A DNA stretch of 64,000 nt, taken from the NCBI GenBank assembly GCA_021159365.1, contig JAGGRY010000036.1:4840-68839 (forward strand), written 5' to 3'. The notes beneath the pieces are model-generated. The model was not told the DNA's origin. It was given only the letters and a program-made list of their open reading frames with translations, and searched no databases. The number at the start of each line of letters is the position of its first letter. Positions within the stretch are counted from its first letter, which is position 1. The stretch comes from Nitrososphaerota archaeon. Lineage in GTDB: Archaea > Thermoproteota > Nitrososphaeria_A > Caldarchaeales > Wolframiiraptoraceae. A program made the translations under genes and the position numbers. Shown here piece by piece: positions 4,508 through 35,308 of the stretch.

Positions 4508-4572
4508 CGCGGCATCAACACACTCCCTTAGAGCTGATACATTTTAGAAGGAAGTTATTAATTTTCAAAAAG

Positions 4573-4647
4573 CGGGCCCGGTGGGATTTGAACCCACGAT
4601 CTGCGGCTTAGGAGGCCGCCGCCTTATCCATGCTAGGCCACGGGCCC
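4573..4647 (-). tRNA. tRNA-Arg (anticodon CCU)
   Basis: The reverse complement folds as a cloverleaf: GGGCCCG-TG-GCCT..AGGC-G-GCGGC-CTCCTAA-GCCGC-AGATC-GTGGG-TTCAAAT-CCCAC-CGGGCCC-G. Anticodon loop CU-CCU-AA. No encoded CCA. Confidence 0.9.
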
Positions 4648-8350: not shown

Positions 8351-8425
8351 GGGCCCGTAGCCTAGTTTGGATATGGCGCCGGCCTTCGGAGCCGGAGGTC
8401 CGGGGTTCAAATCCCCGCGGGCCCA
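8351..8425 (+). tRNA. tRNA-Arg (anticodon UCG)
   Basis: Cloverleaf GGGCCCG-TA-GCCT..-CCGGC-CTTCGGA-GCCGG-AGGTC-CGGGG-TTCAAAT-CCCCG-CGGGCCC-A. Anticodon TCG. Confidence 0.9.
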
Positions 8426-8438
8426 CTTAACTTCTTCT

Positions 8439-15722: not shown

Positions 15723-16225
15723 GAGTTAACTATCTCAGTAAGAAGGAAACCTCACTGCTGGCCAATAGGATAAGATCACTGTATTGGGGTGACGTATTGA
15801 GAGGAAAGATAAGGAATGCTGTAGAGATAAGGGAAAATGGGATAAAGCTTTACAGGATAGGCGAGCTCATAATCGGGGAGATTAATGATAAACTCTATCC
15901 GGTAATCCATGAGAGAAATCAGGAGGTATTAAACAAGTTACCCGCAATAATAGTGGATATGGGAGCAGTTCCACACATAGTTAATGGAGCAGATGTGATG
16001 AGGCCGGGAATTAAAGAGTTTAGAGGAGAATTTGATGAAGGCGATTTGGTGGTCGTTAGAGATGAGAGAAATCTTAAGCCGTTGGCCGTGGCTATCACCC
16101 TAGTAGGGCTTGAGGAGTGTAAGGCCATGGAGAGAGGGAAGGTGGCGAAAAATATTCACCATGTAAATGATAAGATTTGGAAACTGATGAGAAAGATAAG
16201 ACATATACTTGAACGAGAACTTTAA
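15719..16225 (+). CDS. PUA-domain RNA-binding protein
   Basis: 168 aa. GADVMRPGI and VVVRDERNLKPLAVAITL are typical PUA signatures. Start overlaps the upstream stop (ATGA). Confidence 0.7.
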   Translation: MRVNYLSKKETSLLANRIRSLYWGDVLRGKIRNAVEIRENGIKLYRIGELIIGEINDKLYPVIHERNQEVLNKLPAIIVDMGAVPHIVNGADVMRPGIKEFRGEFDEGDLVVVRDERNLKPLAVAITLVGLEECKAMERGKVAKNIHHVNDKIWKLMRKIRHILEREL

Positions 16226-17382
16226 CTCCTAATCTTCAGGAGGAATAGAACTCCGATTAGGTTTATTAAAGAACCTATCCAGAAGATGCCTAAAACCTCC
16301 ACGTAATTGTAGAGGATTCCGGCGATCATGGGGCCTGGAATGCTAATTATGCTCGTTATAAGATCCAGTGATCCTATTATCGCCCCAACCCCTCTTCCAT
16401 TCGCGATCTCGGCCAAGATCTTCCTCCTGGCCGGCATATCCATCGAGCTTACGATACCCATGAAGATCGCTGAGACGATTATTATCGCAAAGTTCCATGA
16501 GTATGCGTAGAACATCCATGAAGCGAAGGATGTTATAAGATGCCATGTCAAGATTCCTTTCCCTCCAATTTTATCGGTTAAAATGCCCCAGAGAACTGTG
16601 GTGAAGACCATTGATAAAGTCCAGGTGGAGTTGACGATACCTATTCCATAGTCGCTTAGCCCCAGATCACTTGCGTGAACAGAGATAAATGGGAAGAGTA
16701 TGTTGAAGCCCATGGCGTGAAATATCAAGCCTATCGATAGGGATCTGAAGTTCTCATCCTCTACTAGAAGACTTTTTATGCTTAGAGAGCTGCCTGGGGA
16801 ATCGGTTGAGCTTTGATCGCCTTTGAGTAGAATCGTTGGTATGATGGCTAAGAACGACATTATAGATGATAGGAGAAATAATATGTTGCTCCCGAATAAT
16901 TCCTTAACCGATCCGCCTACAAAAGATCCTATTACGTCTCCGAGTAATCCTCCGGATAAGGCTATTCCATAGACAACTCCTGCTCTCTTAACGCCTCCCT
17001 TTTCAACGGTATAAGCCGTAACTGAGACTATGAATGATCCATAACCCATTCCAGAGATGAAGCATGCAACTGAAAGGATTATTGGATCTCTCGTATAAGC
17101 CATTATGATCACGGAGAATCCCATCAATATCAGGCCGAAGGCCATGACTTTCCTTCTACCGAATCTATCGGATAGTCTTCCAGCCGGGAGGACGCTGACA
17201 GCATAAGACAAATTATATAGAGTCATTATAACTCCGAGAACCTCGCCGCTGAGCATGAGATCCTTGATCAGATACTTTCCAAAGAGAGAATACCAAAGCC
17301 ATGTACTACATTCGGCTAAGAGATATGCAAGGGTTGAGAAGCCTGCAGCCGATAATGCGCTGGTGAAACTCTCCGTGCTCAA
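16222..17382 (-). CDS. MFS transporter
   Basis: 386 aa with about 11-12 TM segments. The loop motif GRLSDRFGRRKV is the MFS signature between TM2 and TM3. Confidence 0.85.
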   Translation of the reverse strand: MSTESFTSALSAAGFSTLAYLLAECSTWLWYSLFGKYLIKDLMLSGEVLGVIMTLYNLSYAVSVLPAGRLSDRFGRRKVMAFGLILMGFSVIIMAYTRDPIILSVACFISGMGYGSFIVSVTAYTVEKGGVKRAGVVYGIALSGGLLGDVIGSFVGGSVKELFGSNILFLLSSIMSFLAIIPTILLKGDQSSTDSPGSSLSIKSLLVEDENFRSLSIGLIFHAMGFNILFPFISVHASDLGLSDYGIGIVNSTWTLSMVFTTVLWGILTDKIGGKGILTWHLITSFASWMFYAYSWNFAIIIVSAIFMGIVSSMDMPARRKILAEIANGRGVGAIIGSLDLITSIISIPGPMIAGILYNYVEVLGIFWIGSLINLIGVLFLLKIRS

Positions 17383-17436: not shown

Positions 17437-17748
17437 TTATCCCGTCAGTATTATCGGTCTACGTTCAACTAGTGCTTGGATGAGTTTTCTCCTACCGCTA
17501 TCTAGAGCTCTCCAAAGAGTTCCACGTGAGATCTTCATGAGCTTAGCTGCTTCCTCCTGAGTTCTTCTCTCAAGATAGACCAGTCTCAAGGCCTCGAACT
17601 CATCTGGTCTAAGATAGATTGGCGGAGATGGAAGCGGATTTCCCAAATCGTCTAGTGGTGCGAAGAAGAGCTTTCCCAACCCTATTCGAATAAATCTATC
17701 TTTAGGGGGTCTGCCTCTTCCATGAACTCTCCAACGCCACCTTGGCAT
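17437..17748 (-). CDS. DUF134/UPF0251 family DNA-binding protein (sigma-70 region-4-like HTH)
   Basis: MPRWRW..GRGRPPKDRFI...LRPDEFEALRLVYLERRTQEEAAKLMKISRGTLWRALDSGRRKLIQAL matches the UPF0251 pattern as I recall it. Confidence 0.8.
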   Translation of the reverse strand: MPRWRWRVHGRGRPPKDRFIRIGLGKLFFAPLDDLGNPLPSPPIYLRPDEFEALRLVYLERRTQEEAAKLMKISRGTLWRALDSGRRKLIQALVERRPIILTG

Positions 17749-17772
17749 TCAAGATAAAATCTCTTATTTGGA

Positions 17773-17808
17773 GTTTATAAAGTGAATCATACTAATGTGC
17801 GATCGCAC
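17773..17808. promoter_or_regulatory. Palindromic TATA element TTTATAAA (17773-17780) plus a perfect 14-bp palindrome TGTGCGATCGCACA (17795-17808)
   Basis: Read directly from the sequence. The site lies in the 99-bp divergent spacer between the DUF134 gene and the low-complexity/NifX/MinD operon. The palindrome sits where the + strand transcript would start. Confidence 0.5.
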
Positions 17809-17847
17809 AAAACTTAAAGCCACCTTCGATGTCTTAACTTGGGGTGA

Positions 17848-18075
17848 ATGCTAGTGGGATACCCATACAGGAGATATTGGAGATACCCATTTTACCCGAT
17901 GCCACTCTATCCGCCGTTCATGCCGCCATATCCGCCAAGCCCAGAAGATGAGCTTAGAATGCTGGAAGACTACAAGCGCGAACTCGAGGCTGAACTCAAG
18001 GATCTTGAGGAAGAGCTTAAGAGCGTTGAGGCTAGGATTGAGGAGCTGCGGAAGACGCTTGGCCAAAAGGGATAA
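17848..18075 (+). CDS. DUF5320-like small protein: Pro/Tyr/Arg-rich N-terminus plus coiled coil
   Basis: GYPYRRYWRYPFYPMPLYPPFMPPYPPSPEDEL then a heptad-rich EELK coil. A GGGGTGA SD-like sequence precedes it. GTG at 17854 may be the real start. The DUF5320 name is from memory. Confidence 0.6.
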   Translation: MLVGYPYRRYWRYPFYPMPLYPPFMPPYPPSPEDELRMLEDYKRELEAELKDLEEELKSVEARIEELRKTLGQKG

Positions 18076-18116
18076 AGGTTAAATTTTGAGCAATATCACA
18101 AAAATGGTGAGAGAAG

Positions 18117-18428
18117 ATGGGATGGGGTTGGAGAGGTAGAGGTTGGGGATGGTGGTCTCCCTGGCCTGGAAGAGGACCATTCAGCTACCTACCACCATGG
18201 CTTAGACCAGGCTGGCTCTTCGGGAGAGGAGCATGCTGGTGGCTATTCGGCGCTCCATGGGGGCTAAGATGGTGGCTGCCATGGATCTATGGATATTATC
18301 CGTGGTATAGCTACTGGTGGCCATACCCGTGGACAGCCTATCGCTACTACCCATGGACTGCATACGGTTATTATCCATGGATGATGTACGGCTATTCGCC
18401 ATATGCTTATCTATGGCCGTACTACTGA
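18117..18428 (+). CDS. Extreme Trp/Tyr/Pro/Gly-rich low-complexity protein (103 aa)
   Basis: By manual count: 21 W, 19 Y, 15 P, 15 G, 7 R, and no D/E/K. Tandem YYPWTAY units. A GGTGAGAG SD-like sequence lies 5 nt upstream of the ATG. Same strand and tight spacing with its neighbours. Confidence 0.6.
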   Translation: MGWGWRGRGWGWWSPWPGRGPFSYLPPWLRPGWLFGRGACWWLFGAPWGLRWWLPWIYGYYPWYSYWWPYPWTAYRYYPWTAYGYYPWMMYGYSPYAYLWPYY

Positions 18429-18446
18429 TTCTGAGGTGGAATAGGA

Positions 18447-19193
18447 GTGTGGTGGGGCTACCCAGGCTATTGGAGAACACCGCCTATAACTCGGCCTCTA
18501 TCGCCTGAACAGGAATTGGATTGGCTTGAGTCCTATAAACGAGGGCTAGAGGATGAGATAAACCGTATTAAGGAAGAGATTAAGAGGGTTGAGGAGGAGA
18601 TTGAGAGATTGAAGAAAGAGATCGAATCCATGCCTCCCGAAGTCCAGCAACCTTCACCAACCTATCCTCCAGCTTATCAGCCAGCTCCCATGCCTGGATA
18701 TGGAATGGAGTATCAGCCAATGTATATGCCTGGACCGGGCTATGGCATGGGTTGGGGCCGTAGGATGGGTTGGGGTAGAGGGATGGGTAGAGGATGGGGA
18801 GCTATGCCTCCAGCAGCTGCACCTCAGATGCCTCAGCTACCTCCATTAAGATCTGGAGTCAAAAGAGTTGTCGCCGCCGTCGAGGATAATAATGGATTAG
18901 ATTCTAGGATCTCTTCAAGGTTTGGTAGGGCGCCTTTCATGGCGTTCGTCGATGTCGCGGATGGAGAAGTCAAGGCCGTTAACATAATTCCAAATCAAGC
19001 AGCTAATCTCCCAACAGGAGCTGGAATAAGTGTCGCCCAATGGGTTATCTCTGCTCAAGCAACCGATGTAATCGCGCCATATCTTGGACCGAATGTCTCA
19101 ATGGTCTTCTCGCAGGCAGGTCTAAGAGTTCACTCGACTGAGCCCTTAATTCCCTTGTCAGAAGCTTTGAGAAGAGCTGGATTCATAAGATAG
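18447..19193 (+). CDS. DUF5320-like N-terminus (aromatic, coiled coil, Gly/Met/Trp-rich linker) fused to a NifX/NifB-type dinitrogenase FeMo-cofactor-binding-like domain
   Basis: N-terminus MWWGYPGYWRTPP..SPEQELDWLESYKRGLEDE is paralogous to ORF 17848. The linker is GYGMGWGRRMGWGRGMGRGWG. C-terminus KRVVAAVEDNNGLDSRISSRFGRAPFMAFVDV...GAGISVAQWVISAQATDVIA matches the Nitro_FeMo-Co-type pattern. GTG start with a GAGGTGGA SD. Confidence 0.7.
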   Translation: MWWGYPGYWRTPPITRPLSPEQELDWLESYKRGLEDEINRIKEEIKRVEEEIERLKKEIESMPPEVQQPSPTYPPAYQPAPMPGYGMEYQPMYMPGPGYGMGWGRRMGWGRGMGRGWGAMPPAAAPQMPQLPPLRSGVKRVVAAVEDNNGLDSRISSRFGRAPFMAFVDVADGEVKAVNIIPNQAANLPTGAGISVAQWVISAQATDVIAPYLGPNVSMVFSQAGLRVHSTEPLIPLSEALRRAGFIR

Positions 19194-19195
19194 TC

Positions 19196-20077
19196 ATGGA
19201 GATCGTTGTCGCCAGCGGAAAGGGTGGAACCGGCAAGACATTCCTAGCATCAAACTTGGCCATATTGATCGATGAGAAGCTCGATGGAGTCGTGGCCGCG
19301 GACGCAGATGTGGAAGCGCCAGATCTAATCCTGGCAATGGGAGGAGAGAAGAGGCTCTTAAAGAGTAGGGAGATCTGGGAGTCCATGAAGGCATCCATAA
19401 ACTACGAACTCTGCAATAGGTGTTTGAAGTGCATTGATGTATGCATGTTTGATGCAATAAGATTAGTCGATGGCAAGCCTAAGATCGTCGAAGAATTCTG
19501 CGAGGGATGTGGAGCATGTGCCCACGTATGTCCAGTGAATGCGATAAGCTTCAGGAAGGCTAAAACCGGTAGAATTTACTCTGTTGAAACCATGGCCGGC
19601 GTGAAGACCACCACAGGAGATCTAGAAATAGGTGGAAGAAATACTGGAGAACTCGTCTACCTCGTTAGAGAGGAAGCGAAGGAGTTCGCGAGAAAAGATC
19701 ACGTGAAGAATATAATCATAGATAGCGCTCCTGGAATAGGATGTCCCGTGATCTCAAGCCTATCCGGAGCAGATCTATTGATAATCGTGGTCGAGCCGAC
19801 CCCGCAGTCCCTCACGGGAGCTAAGAGGCTGTTAAAGGTCGCTGAATCGTTTAAGATGAAGGTAACCTACGTCGTGAATAAATTTGATCTAAATGAAGAG
19901 TTCCTCAAGACGATAGACTCCGAGCTTGGATTAGAATGTGTTGGGAAGATACCATACGATTCAGAAGTTCCATCATCATACTCGATGATGAGGCCGATGG
20001 CGATATATGGAATGGATACGAGAGCTGGAAGAGCGTTAAAAGAGGTATTTGAGAGCTTAGGGAGCTGGATAACTTGA
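19196..20077 (+). CDS. MinD/ParA-type P-loop ATPase with inserted 2x[4Fe-4S] ferredoxin domain
   Basis: Deviant Walker A ASGKGGTGKT. Two Cys clusters: CNRCLKCIDVC and CEGCGACAHVCP. Confidence 0.85.
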   Translation: MEIVVASGKGGTGKTFLASNLAILIDEKLDGVVAADADVEAPDLILAMGGEKRLLKSREIWESMKASINYELCNRCLKCIDVCMFDAIRLVDGKPKIVEEFCEGCGACAHVCPVNAISFRKAKTGRIYSVETMAGVKTTTGDLEIGGRNTGELVYLVREEAKEFARKDHVKNIIIDSAPGIGCPVISSLSGADLLIIVVEPTPQSLTGAKRLLKVAESFKMKVTYVVNKFDLNEEFLKTIDSELGLECVGKIPYDSEVPSSYSMMRPMAIYGMDTRAGRALKEVFESLGSWIT

Positions 20078-20958
20078 CCGAGATAATCTCAGTCGCAGGC
20101 GGGAAAGGTGGAACAGGAAAAACACTAGTCGCAGTCAACTTAGCATACATGTTAAATCAGGATCGCAGAACTCTCCTAGTTGACGTCGACGTCGATAACC
20201 CTTGCACGAGATCCTTCTTCGAGGTGAGGCAACTATGGGAGAAAAAGGTGTTAGAGTTCAGGCCGAAGATAAACCAAGATCTATGCAAGCTCTGCGGAAT
20301 ATGTGTAAGAAACTGTCCAGAACACGCCTTAGTAATGATTCCGGGAAAACAGGTGATGTTGGTTGAAGAGCTGTGCGCTGGATGCGGAGTGTGTAGACTT
20401 GTATGTCCCTTTAACGCGATCGAGGAATCATGGATTGAAGGAGGAGTCGTTAAGGGATATGAGACCGAAGATGGAATTGATCTAGTCGTCGGAGAGCTTC
20501 AGCCAACCTGCAGGAGAAGTCCGGTGATGATCTTGAAAACCCTGAATGTCGTGAAGGACCTCATAGAAAAATACGAGTATATCGTCATGGACGCGCCTCC
20601 CGGAGCGGATGCAGGAATATACTCGATAATGGATTATTCTGAGACTATCTTGGCCGTGACCGAGCCGACGCCCTTAGGTCTCATGGATCTTAAGAAGATC
20701 TATAGACTGTATCAGAAGTTCTTTCATGGTAGAAAGAGATTCATGGTGATCATCAACAAGTATGGCCTACCCGGCGGCTCCGATCAGGAGACGAGGAGAT
20801 TTCTTGAGGAAAATGGGATAGCTTGGACTACCATACCATACGATGACTTAATTGTGCGAAGCTATATCGCCGGAGAACTCATAGTAAAGGCTCATCCTGA
20901 TTCGAAGGCGGCCAGCTCCCTCAGAGGGGTCATCAAATTGCTGGGGAAGGAGATATAA
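20074..20958 (+). CDS. MinD/ParA-type P-loop ATPase with inserted 2x[4Fe-4S] ferredoxin domain (paralogue)
   Basis: AGGKGGTGKT, with clusters CKLCGICVRNCP and CAGCGVCRLVCP. Overlaps the upstream stop by 4 nt. Confidence 0.85.
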   Translation: MTEIISVAGGKGGTGKTLVAVNLAYMLNQDRRTLLVDVDVDNPCTRSFFEVRQLWEKKVLEFRPKINQDLCKLCGICVRNCPEHALVMIPGKQVMLVEELCAGCGVCRLVCPFNAIEESWIEGGVVKGYETEDGIDLVVGELQPTCRRSPVMILKTLNVVKDLIEKYEYIVMDAPPGADAGIYSIMDYSETILAVTEPTPLGLMDLKKIYRLYQKFFHGRKRFMVIINKYGLPGGSDQETRRFLEENGIAWTTIPYDDLIVRSYIAGELIVKAHPDSKAASSLRGVIKLLGKEI

Positions 20959-20984: not shown

Positions 20985-21212
20985 TTGAGCCGTAAAAAAG
21001 CTGTCAAGTTGAAGATAGTCGATCATAGACACTGCTTGACATGCGGTAAGGCGATTCCACCTGATAAGGAGTTTTGCTCAGAGGAATGTAGGAAGAAGTA
21101 TGAACGGGCGAGGATGAGGGAGGAGAGGGTGAAGAAGATACTCTGGATAATGTATGCTGTGATGATAGGTTCTCTTTTAATTGTGATCGTGCTTAGGACG
21201 ATGATTCACTAA
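20985..21212 (+). CDS. Small Zn-ribbon protein with C-terminal TM helix (DUF2116-like)
   Basis: CLTCGKAIPPDKEFCSEECRKKY followed by the hydrophobic ILWIMYAVMIGSLLIVIVL. Confidence 0.5.
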   Translation: MSRKKAVKLKIVDHRHCLTCGKAIPPDKEFCSEECRKKYERARMREERVKKILWIMYAVMIGSLLIVIVLRTMIH

Positions 21213-29315: not shown

Positions 29316-29451
29316 GATTCAGGTCAGTTAACGATTTGGTTAAAGATAAGCCTTACAGCTCGAAAAACGTCGAAATCATACCTAGAAAATCCGACAACAA
29401 GATACAAACCAAATACAAAAGAAATTAAGGATCAAAAACTGATGAATAAAT

Positions 29452-29526
29452 GGGCCCGTGGCCTAGCATGGATAAGGCGCCGGCCTCCGGAGCCGGAGAA
29501 CCCGGGTTCAAATCCCGGCGGGCCCG
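29452..29526 (+). tRNA. tRNA-Arg (anticodon CCG)
   Basis: Cloverleaf GGGCCCG-TG-GCCT..-CCGGC-CTCCGGA-GCCGG-AGAAC-CCGGG-TTCAAAT-CCCGG-CGGGCCC-G. The 5' half is nearly identical to the tRNA-Arg(CCU) at 4573-4647. Confidence 0.9.
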
Positions 29527-29547
29527 AATACTTCCGTAATTTTTTAG

Positions 29548-35156: not shown

Positions 35157-35229
35157 GCCCCGGTAGCTCAGCGGGTAGAGCGGCGGCCTCGTAAGCCGCA
35201 GGCCGCGGGTTCAAAGCCCGCCCGGGGCT
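35157..35229 (+). tRNA. tRNA-Thr (anticodon CGU)
   Basis: Cloverleaf GCCCCGG-TA-GCTC-AGCGGGTA-GAGC-G-GCGGC-CTCGTAA-GCCGC-AGGCC-GCGGG-TTCAAAG-CCCGC-CCGGGGC-T. Confidence 0.9.
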
Positions 35230-35308
35230 CATCCAAGAAATTTTGTGAGCATGAGGATCGATGTGATTTTTATGAATCTAATCATTCAATAAGAGAGCAT
35301 TTGAGCAA

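Follow-up and report, generated by a model that had tools for sequence, protein, structure and literature searches.

An archaeal gene cluster combining an IssA-like domain fusion, aromatic Gly-rich proteins and paired MinD-ferredoxin ATPases is a candidate iron-sulfide handling system

Two characterised systems resemble the locus described here, a gene cluster at positions 17437-20958 of a stretch of 64,000 nucleotides (the window) from a Nitrososphaerota archaeon, contig JAGGRY010000036.1 (scaffold_87 of the hot-environment metagenome SPET22-1). The first is IssA of Pyrococcus furiosus (PF2025, formerly SipA). It consists of an IPR003731 domain and a 70-residue tail, Pro-rich and then cationic, aromatic and Gly-rich, that holds the sole Cys of the protein; it stores iron and sulfur in the form of thioferrate, in particles of up to 300 nm, and MTH1175 is assigned to the same clade (PMC5524996). 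In the accessible literature up to 2026 IssA is treated as a single protein. In P. furiosus sipA/issA is reported to be the gene most strongly induced by elemental sulfur (S0), with a response to sulfide only when iron is sufficient. Of the five genes most induced in Palaeococcus pacificus, four encode SipA, a second NifX-type protein and, from adjacent genes, two proteins described as “CobQ with Fe-S binding domain”. The second system is the ORP complex of Desulfovibrio, with two MinD-like ATPases carrying 4Fe-4S motifs, the orange protein (ORP) and MrpORP (PMC6345978); Orp3, Orp4 and Orp8 of D. vulgaris are reported to purify together and to be given iron-sulfur (Fe-S) clusters by MrpORP. 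There is essentially no literature on DUF134, DUF5320 and the MinD-ferredoxin ATPases, and DUF5320 has no described function.

The cluster contains six open reading frames (ORFs), all of them exactly where the initial annotation of this DNA had placed them: a gene for a DUF134/UPF0251 helix-turn-helix protein (17437-17748, minus strand, 103 aa) and, divergent from it on the plus strand, ORF1 (17848-18075, 75 aa), ORF2 (18117-18428, 103 aa), ORF3 (18447-19193, 248 aa) and two genes for MinD/ParA-type ATPases, ATPase1 (19196-20077, 293 aa) and ATPase2 (20074-20958, 294 aa). Packing is tight: 2 nt separate ORF3 from ATPase1, the stop of ATPase1 and the start of ATPase2 overlap by 4 nt, and Shine-Dalgarno (SD)-like sequences (GGTGA or GAGGTG) lie 6-9 nt before the start codons of ORF1, ORF2 and ORF3. 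The nearest genomes are metagenome-assembled genomes (MAGs) of Nitrososphaeria, Ca. Wolframiiraptor among these. That annotation credited the gene combination with no established function, overlooking both IssA/SipA (PMC5524996) and the ORP complex (PMC6345978), and advanced as a speculation a metal- or Fe-S-handling machine with a self-assembling scaffold. The latter is the best-supported reading. We propose, with a probability of about 0.6, that the cluster sequesters and remobilises anionic iron-sulfide species in the manner of IssA and ORP, i.e. that it is the Nitrososphaeria counterpart, expanded and rearranged, of the Thermococcales IssA locus and the Desulfovibrio ORP complex. For comparison we used 80 loci from about ten archaeal lineages, anchored on homologs of ORF2 (W-motif genes, named after the conserved core of this protein).

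The composite build ascribed to ORF3 (aromatic stretch and coiled coil, linker, NifX-like domain) is recovered by the domain searches. Pfam detects Nitro_FeMo-Co (PF02579; 51.6 bits, E 1.2e-13) at residues 152-243, inside a NifX/IssA-type IPR003731 domain at residues 138-248 (about nt 18858-19190). Upstream lie an aromatic N-terminus (residues 1-17), a coiled coil (residues 20-61, about nt 18504-18629) and a linker (residues 63-137, about nt 18633-18857) that is Pro-rich and then reads GWGRRMGWGRGMGRGWG. The linker (PSPTYPPAYQPAPMPGYGMEYQPMYMPGPGYGMGWGRRMGWGRGMGRGWG) has 75 aa with 18 Pro, 14 Gly, five Lys or Arg and an isoelectric point (pI) of 9.7; ORF3 is devoid of Cys. In the AlphaFold2 (AF2) model residues 20-61 form one long helix with a predicted local distance difference test score (pLDDT) of 72-83, the linker stays below 50, residues 65-122 being predicted disordered, and the domain exceeds 90. 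In this model the domain adopts the alpha/beta fold that had been expected of the NifX-like region, with template modelling (TM) scores of 0.76-0.87 to PH0822, TM1816 and ORP in Foldseek. Among PDB sequences MTH1175 is the best match (E 4.6e-10), and the orange protein of D. gigas (2wfb) is found by phmmer at E 3.1e-7 and by Foldseek at E 3.4e-8 (TM 0.79, root-mean-square deviation 1.5 Å).

The P. furiosus IssA protein was recovered as P0204 (179 aa), its tail reading ...PTPVTPAPAMYGPVYPPFGWGRGWGKGRGWGRGWGSILGYCPWTG...WYYGWW. The ORF3 domain is 29% identical to its residues 3-106 (E 6e-12), and the linker of ORF3, like the IssA tail (...PTPVTPAPAMYGPVYPPFGWGRGWGKGRGWGRGWG...), is Pro-rich and then made of cationic, aromatic and Gly-rich repeats of GWGRG type, predicted disordered. 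Two MinD-ferredoxin ATPase genes are also adjacent to P. furiosus issA, in tandem and divergent from it. The window differs by its separate genes of ORF1 and ORF2 type and by its divergent DUF134 gene. ORF3 is a permuted form of the IssA design, i.e. of domain, Pro-rich stretch and GWGRG tail.

The coiled coil, the Gly/Arg/aromatic stretch and the NifX domain are found joined in all orders, and the initial annotation overlooked that ORF3 is one version of a recurrent fusion of NifX domain, tail and coiled coil. The ORF3-type fusion recurs in 12 protein clusters; four others (P0133-P0136) reverse it, with the NifX domain first, then GMGRGMG repeats and an SPEQEL coiled coil. Across the 80 loci about 36 of the 61 NifX-domain proteins bear extensions, the Gly/Arg/aromatic stretch being N-terminal, C-terminal, C-terminal with a coiled coil or N-terminal with a coiled coil. 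That the coiled-coil, Gly/Arg/aromatic and NifX modules are so freely permuted and fused is classical evidence for their acting together. Thermococci also have a second NifX-domain protein of ~200 aa with a Pro/Gln-rich tail (L004 6414-7001; L023, L024, L039, L048, L064, L082). At the end of this tail stands a conserved motif with three Cys, HK[DE]CIHYK[DEN]GKC[DE]FWNL.VH.DDPACPFF.P[KR]NAPWRWW; the gene is preceded by the palindrome described below and overlaps a W-motif gene directly downstream.

The promoter region of the cluster, of which the initial annotation gave no account, contains a perfect operator-like palindrome, TGTGCGATCGCACA (17796-17809), of the form TGTGC-N4-GCACA, directly followed by the A/T-rich AAACTTAAAG. 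It is the sole copy in the window. The 80 loci hold 41 exact sites, in 40 of them, against 1.0 expected in 1.06 Mb, and with at most one mismatch the palindrome stands just upstream of the W-motif gene in 53 of 80. From the extended consensus, tTTT-TGTGC-AWWW-GCACA-AAATTTATA, it adjoins a TATA element, and two copies flank the TATA box in L019, L025, L026, L029, L038, L057 and L068. In the window a TATA-like TTTATAAA (17774-17781) can be read between the divergent genes; standing about 26-30 nt from the ATG of DUF134, it would fit a leaderless DUF134 transcript. A degenerate copy of the palindrome, TGAGCAATATCACA (18087-18100, two mismatches), lies 16 nt ahead of the start codon of ORF2; taken by itself it is a weak hint at a second site, and in the close relatives L008, L010, L012 and L013 a second site likewise stands at this position before the ORF2-type gene.

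The same element is found at issA. P. furiosus has an exact palindrome, TGTGCATATGCACA, immediately behind TTTTAAATA and 20 nt ahead of the ATG of issA, with a one-mismatch copy on the divergent side; TGTGC-N4-GCACA stands beside the TATA box in both the issA promoter and that of the window. In T. aggregans it precedes both an IssA-type gene and a pair formed by a NifX-tail gene and a W-motif gene, and a copy with two mismatches separates divergent NifX and MinD-Fer4 genes. At one locus only, that of Ca. Wolframiiraptor (L010, about 1145-1160, between DUF134 and ORF1), a Fur-box-like palindrome, GATAATCATTATC, adjoins TGTGC-N4-GCACA; it hints at an additional iron-dependent control there.

The linkage of the genes was measured with hidden Markov models built from the proteins of the window and of three other loci, as hits per 10 kb of available flank around the W-motif gene. 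For DUF134 the density was 1.62 within 1.5 kb, 0.21 at 1.5-3 kb and 0 both at 3-5 kb and at 5-10 kb; the corresponding values were 2.08, 0.43, 0.38 and 0 for the NifX domain, 1.66, 1.49, 0.38 and 0.38 for MinD-Fer4, and 2.72, 0, 0 and 0 for the coiled-coil module. Flanks of 3 kb or more on each side were available at 45 loci. A coiled-coil gene is found in 32 of them (always within 1.5 kb of the W-motif gene, never farther), a DUF134 gene (within 3 kb) and a NifX-domain gene in 24 each and the ATPases in 20, and only two of the 45 have none of these four families. The exact gene order of the window is seen again in L008-L013. The genes are thus tightly co-localised throughout the archaeal lineages sampled, and the recurrence of DUF134, NifX-like domain and MinD-ferredoxin ATPase, which the initial annotation had put forward, is real. 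The expansion with three aromatic proteins to which it pointed is not peculiar to the source genome: the ORF1- and ORF2-type genes are the most tightly linked members across Archaea. Two MAGs labelled WOR-3 and “uncultured bacterium” (L080, L081) have a W-motif gene, a fusion of NifX domain, GYG/GRG repeat and coiled coil, and two MinD-Fer4 genes; this bacterial occurrence could reflect horizontal transfer or mis-binning.

In the more distant clusters L006 and L088 the set also includes undoubted genes of Fe-S biogenesis, NifU_N and Mrp (FeS_assembly_P), which agrees with the proposed iron-sulfide role, and radical SAM genes are frequent neighbours. These genes would also suit a machine, akin to the ORP/Mrp chaperones, that matures and delivers Fe-S clusters or cofactors to specific clients and stores no mineral: the NifX domain would carry a discrete cluster transiently, the ATPases would work like Mrp/NBP35 or NifH and the low-complexity proteins would be adaptors. 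The transfer of clusters from MrpORP to Orp3/Orp4, the cofactor carriers of the NifX/NafY family and the lack of the IssA Cys motif in ORF3 point the same way. We nevertheless regard this as rather unlikely, because cationic Gly/Trp/Arg stretches and coiled coils are difficult to reconcile with a stoichiometric carrier and are a hallmark of the thioferrate-binding IssA, because the operator is held in common with issA, and because no client enzyme gene is consistently linked. The fullest set of these genes in a single run is that of L088 (3812-11465, a distant genome from a metagenome), which reads DUF134, DUF364, two DUF5320, a NifX+DUF5320 fusion, a Zn-ribbon gene, two MinD-Fer4, NifX, Mrp (FeS_assembly_P+ParA), NifU_N and radical SAM.

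The nature of the metal has also to be considered, since Ca. Wolframiiraptor, to which the syntenic locus L010 belongs, depends on tungsten and is among the closest relatives. Thiometallates (Mo/W-S or Mo-Cu-S) could be the species handled, as for the orange protein of Desulfovibrio, which binds a [S2MoS2CuS2MoS2] cluster non-covalently (PMC6345978). The match of the ORF3 domain to the D. gigas protein, in sequence and in fold, agrees with this, and wrapping by cationic segments would be appropriate to anionic metal sulfides of any kind. But the cluster has no genes for Mo/W transport or for pterin, the genes linked to it elsewhere are Fe-S genes (NifU_N, Mrp), and in Thermococcales iron and sulfide are what the induction depends on. 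For ORP itself the Mo-Cu cluster is of unsettled physiological relevance. A thiometallate therefore seems an improbable substrate, and iron sulfide the preferred one.

Of the aromatic proteins, ORF1 is as it had been described, Pro/Tyr-rich with a coiled coil: a basic Pro/Tyr-rich N-terminus (30 aa, pI 9.6) precedes an acidic coiled-coil module starting SPEDEL, which matches positions 45-98, i.e. the C-terminal half, of the Pfam DUF5320 profile. The motif S-P-E-x-E-L-x-x-L-E-x-Y-K-R-x-L-E-x-E, from which a duplicated module had been deduced, is indeed common to ORF1 and ORF3, their N-terminal modules being 45% identical (E 3e-12). Against the DUF5320 threshold of 27 bits ORF3 scores 27.9, ORF1 26.2 and ORF2 nothing, and homologs with the ORF2 motif score 27.3. 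The profile matches anticipated by the initial annotation were thus obtained for DUF134, Nitro_FeMo-Co, CbiA/ParA with Fer4 and, in ORF3, DUF5320; that of ORF1 to DUF5320 falls just under the cut-off.

ORF2 had been described as made of W, Y, P and G only, a pure low-complexity protein, which is wrong. These four residues account for 70 of 103, along with seven Arg, one Cys and no acidic residue (pI 9.6), and the first ~45 residues form a conserved, non-repetitive, Cys-containing W-motif core, PWPGRGPFSYLPPWLRPGWLFGRGACWW, with one invariant Cys, followed by a Tyr/Trp/Pro tail. A word-indexed search gave 237 homologs and an exhaustive one matched 102 representative clusters at E<=1e-3; relatives are present in 312 species-representative genomes, nearly all archaeal. 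Their alignment gives the consensus PWPGRGPFS[YH]LPPWxRPGW[LI][FY]GRGACWW, with 20 columns invariant across lineages and a near-invariant Cys. Downstream of this core homologs have either a Tyr/Trp/Pro tail, as ORF2, or a linker and a coiled coil, and those of the second type score as DUF5320 (27.3 bits for P0014).

Could ORF1 and ORF2 be spurious, arising from biased composition, with DUF134, ORF3 and the ATPases the only true genes? ORF2 is left uncalled in public assemblies in which its sequence is identical (L001 9630-10000, L002 8549-8919), it has no match in Pfam or NCBIfam, its AF2 model has a mean pLDDT of 47 and no confident fold (which fits disorder and is otherwise uninformative), and a long antisense ORF (92 aa, 18202-18480, minus strand) overlaps it. 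This possibility is nonetheless refuted, to the point of being hardly credible, by the selection acting on the gene. Against orthologs in five syntenic Nitrososphaeria loci the dN/dS of ORF2 is 0.06-0.16, with a proportion of synonymous differences (pS) of up to 0.69 and of nonsynonymous ones (pN) of 0.10; for ORF1 too pN is far under pS. The orthologs were drawn from L007-L013 in place of L001 and L002, the public contigs of the same sequence, which differ too little for this purpose (at 11-16 positions in 3.6 kb, none of them within ORF2). In the same genome pairs amino-acid identity is 82-94% for ORF2, 59-90% for ORF1 and 55-64% for ORF3, i.e. ORF2 is more conserved than either neighbour. 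The invariant columns, the occurrence of the motif in 312 species genomes and the SD-like site before ORF2 argue likewise. ORF2 is a genuine conserved gene, and the low-complexity ORFs are true genes kept by purifying selection. The antisense ORF is most likely a by-product of the biased codons of ORF2, since the pattern of conservation fits the plus-strand frame. As gene callers miss ORF2-type genes, W-motif genes are probably under-annotated.

The two ATPases are, as first annotated, paralogous MinD/ParA proteins with two 4Fe-4S motifs apiece: Pfam finds CbiA/ParA and Fer4 in both, and they are 29% identical (E 1e-29). In ATPase1 the GKGGTGKT stands at residue 8 and the two CxxCxxCxxxC at 73 and 102, and the Walker B reads IIIDS; ATPase2 has GKGGTGKT, two CxxCxxCxxxC in the same inserted ferredoxin domain and a Walker B IVMDA. 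Both thus combine the deviant Walker A with its signature Lys (KGGxGK[ST]) and a Walker B, as in MinD/ParA (SIMIBI) ATPases. Of 36 loci with full-length copies, 24 have the two in tandem on one strand. The “CobQ” pair induced in Pa. pacificus fits this MinD-Fer4 pair, as judged by description and not by sequence. In P. furiosus COM1 (CP003685; L087 6087-7902) the MinD-Fer4 genes divergent from issA are broken into two and three ORF fragments, and issA is immediately followed by an IS605-family OrfB/TnpB gene and a resolvase gene. A fragment of such an ATPase gene may be what was published as SipB (PF2026), annotated “ATPase C-terminus” for T. onnurineus.

Membership of the MinD/ParA family and the deviant Walker A also allow a role in positioning or cell division, first proposed for ORP, in which the ATPases would localise an assembly and their Fe-S clusters would be mere redox sensors. 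Loss of Orp proteins in D. vulgaris is reported to cause morphological defects, and MrpORP is polar. However, no division genes are linked to the cluster, all conserved partners are metal-cluster or low-complexity proteins, and the regulation is common to issA. Archaeal and bacterial MinD equivalog models (NCBIfam) score far below their cut-offs, so the window ATPases are not MinD proper. As the main function positioning is quite improbable; it is compatible with storage, the two roles not being mutually exclusive.

The DUF134 protein matches Pfam PF02001 (61.4 bits, threshold 27), has a C-terminal Sigma70_r4-like helix-turn-helix and reaches 80.6 bits for NCBIfam PRK04217, under the equivalog cut-off of 115. 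Its N-terminal Trp/Arg arm, MPRWRWRVHGRGRPPKDR (window 17695-17748), has an AT-hook-like GRGRP core, and the protein is without Cys. Among 40 cluster-linked DUF134 proteins the arm is conserved as PPWRWRWRRxGRGRPPKPR, and none of their positions is a conserved Cys able to ligate a sensor cluster. The arm resembles the Trp/Arg/Gly chemistry of the structural proteins. It is plausible that DUF134 is a regulator acting at the palindrome, because it is the sole linked DNA-binding protein, is often divergent across the palindrome and has an arm that suits its A/T-rich centre. The upstream region of the T. aggregans DUF134 gene has no palindrome.

Together these elements suggest the following mechanism. 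The IPR003731 domain of ORF3 would nucleate or bind a non-covalent Fe-S polymer or cluster, as IssA does, and cationic, aromatic and Gly-rich segments (the ORF3 linker, the core and tail of ORF2, the N-termini of ORF1 and ORF3) would neutralise and wrap it. The SPExEL coiled coils of ORF1 and ORF3 may oligomerise the components into a scaffold. ORF1 and ORF2 would then be wrapper or scaffold components acting in trans, and ORF3 a nucleating domain with its own wrapper and oligomerisation helix. The MinD-type ATPases may form an ATP-dependent dimer whose ferredoxin domains supply or remove electrons, loading the store or releasing Fe-S units to acceptor proteins. Transcription would be governed at the palindrome beside the TATA box, with the divergent DUF134 as candidate regulator; for this operator control we cite the response of the homologous Thermococcales promoter to sulfide when iron is sufficient. 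Thioferrate binding, a complex of the Orp3-Orp4-Orp8 kind and induction by sulfur are properties described for the homologs, which we extend to the window by analogy, and the parts given to ORF1, ORF2, the ATPases and DUF134 are our own inferences.

Several points weigh against this proposal. The cluster is known in its source organism as sequence alone. In ORF3 the tail-like segment comes before the domain and follows a coiled coil, whereas that of IssA is C-terminal, and ORF3 has neither a Cys nor the IssA end motif LGYCPWTG...GWW, which in the form LGYCPWTGxPSRR...GWW, with its single Cys, is invariant in 22 Thermococcales IssA proteins. Comparison of the ORF2 W-motif with the IssA tail by hhalign gave a probability of 9.8%, i.e. 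no profile similarity, so their analogy, and with it the idea of ORF2 as an IssA tail in trans, is compositional only. The window ATPases are likened to Orp3/Orp4 (DVU2103/DVU2104) by their published description (PMC6345978), not by their sequences, and even in Desulfovibrio the role of MinD-ferredoxin ATPases is unsettled, with a link to cell division proposed. Deletion of IssA in P. furiosus leaves thioferrate-like iron, and a later study prefers detoxification over storage (PMC8219758). Finally, the presence of the palindrome is uncorrelated with that of a local DUF134 gene (19/24 vs 15/21, p=0.73), and it lies near the gene's own 5' end in only 11 of 39 DUF134 genes; these statistics gave no support to a specific tie between the two.

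If the proposal is right, it bears on the storage, detoxification and reuse of iron and sulfide by anaerobes, a poorly understood field. Linkage, domain shuffling and a common operator tie together IssA, ORP, DUF134, DUF5320 and the MinD-ferredoxin ATPases, and supply IssA with candidates for its missing partners, i.e. an ATP- and electron-driven device for loading or release and scaffold proteins acting in trans. For the dependence of issA induction on sulfide and iron the palindrome is a candidate cis-element. The literature searched describes neither the W-motif family, the module shuffling and the shared operator, nor the adjacency of issA and MinD-ferredoxin ATPase genes and a unification of IssA with ORP. 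The promoter palindrome, common to relatives across many archaeal lineages, suggests that IssA and ORP are two forms of a single machine. More tentatively, and as a possibility that we would not yet favour, IssA may be no stand-alone storage protein but one module of an Archaea-wide, ORP-related system. This system of NifX/IssA domains, DUF5320-derived modules (W-motif protein, Gly/Arg/aromatic wrappers, SPExEL coiled coils) and a MinD-ferredoxin pair would build and dismantle an intracellular iron-sulfide biomineral, dependent on ATP and electrons, under a TGTGC-N4-GCACA regulon with DUF134 as its likely iron-sulfide-responsive regulator. The predictions can be tested in genetically tractable Thermococcales.

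The boundaries of the cluster had been drawn correctly, as neither flanking gene is co-conserved. Extending it to the MFS transporter gene (16222-17382) or to the DUF2116 gene (20985-21212) was rejected, since conservation of these is confined to the nearest relative or a single locus, DUF2116 being present in 1 of 80 loci. The latter encodes a zinc-ribbon/transmembrane protein, starts 26 nt past ATPase2 on the same strand and could be co-transcribed. A reading as anti-phage defence was likewise discarded, PADLOC giving no matches beyond coiled-coil noise. Rfam and tRNA scans of the window found nothing tied to the cluster; three tRNA-Arg (CCT, TCG, CCG) and one tRNA-Thr (CGT), at 4572-4647, 8351-8426, 29451-29527 and 35157-35230, are the only Rfam matches.

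Compared with the ORP complex, the cluster has the same two paralogous MinD-like ATPases with two [4Fe-4S] motifs each (the Orp3/Orp4 architecture) and a Nitro_FeMo-Co protein encoded alongside (Orp8), the ORF3 domain matching 2wfb but being fused to further modules; both systems are specific to anaerobes. It differs in that MrpORP (Mrp/NBP35 with Nitro_FeMo-Co) and Orp5 were not found in 17437-20958, in its DUF134 helix-turn-helix protein and archaeal TATA-linked palindrome in place of the regulation by sigma54, OrpR and IHF, and in its DUF5320 and W-motif proteins, undescribed for ORP. The NifX, NafY and NifB C-terminal cofactor carriers have the same alpha/beta fold, in which anionic metal-sulfur cofactors are bound non-covalently; the Foldseek matches include 1p90 and 9ian_F. 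Unlike these carriers, ORF3 has no nif genes in its neighbourhood, is nearest in sequence to stand-alone proteins of the MTH1175, ORP and PH0822 type, and adds disordered and coiled-coil extensions. In the case of DUF5320 (PF17253), the parts of the family are split and permuted over three genes of the window and ORF2 bears an aromatic tail, without Pfam match, where the family has its coiled coil; the coiled coil of ORF1 nevertheless corresponds to the C-terminal half of the profile and the linker of ORF3 to its central Gly/Arg-rich part. The components are thus of known kinds (IssA, ORP, DUF134, DUF5320), and what is new is the permuted IssA-like fusion together with separate W-motif and coiled-coil genes.

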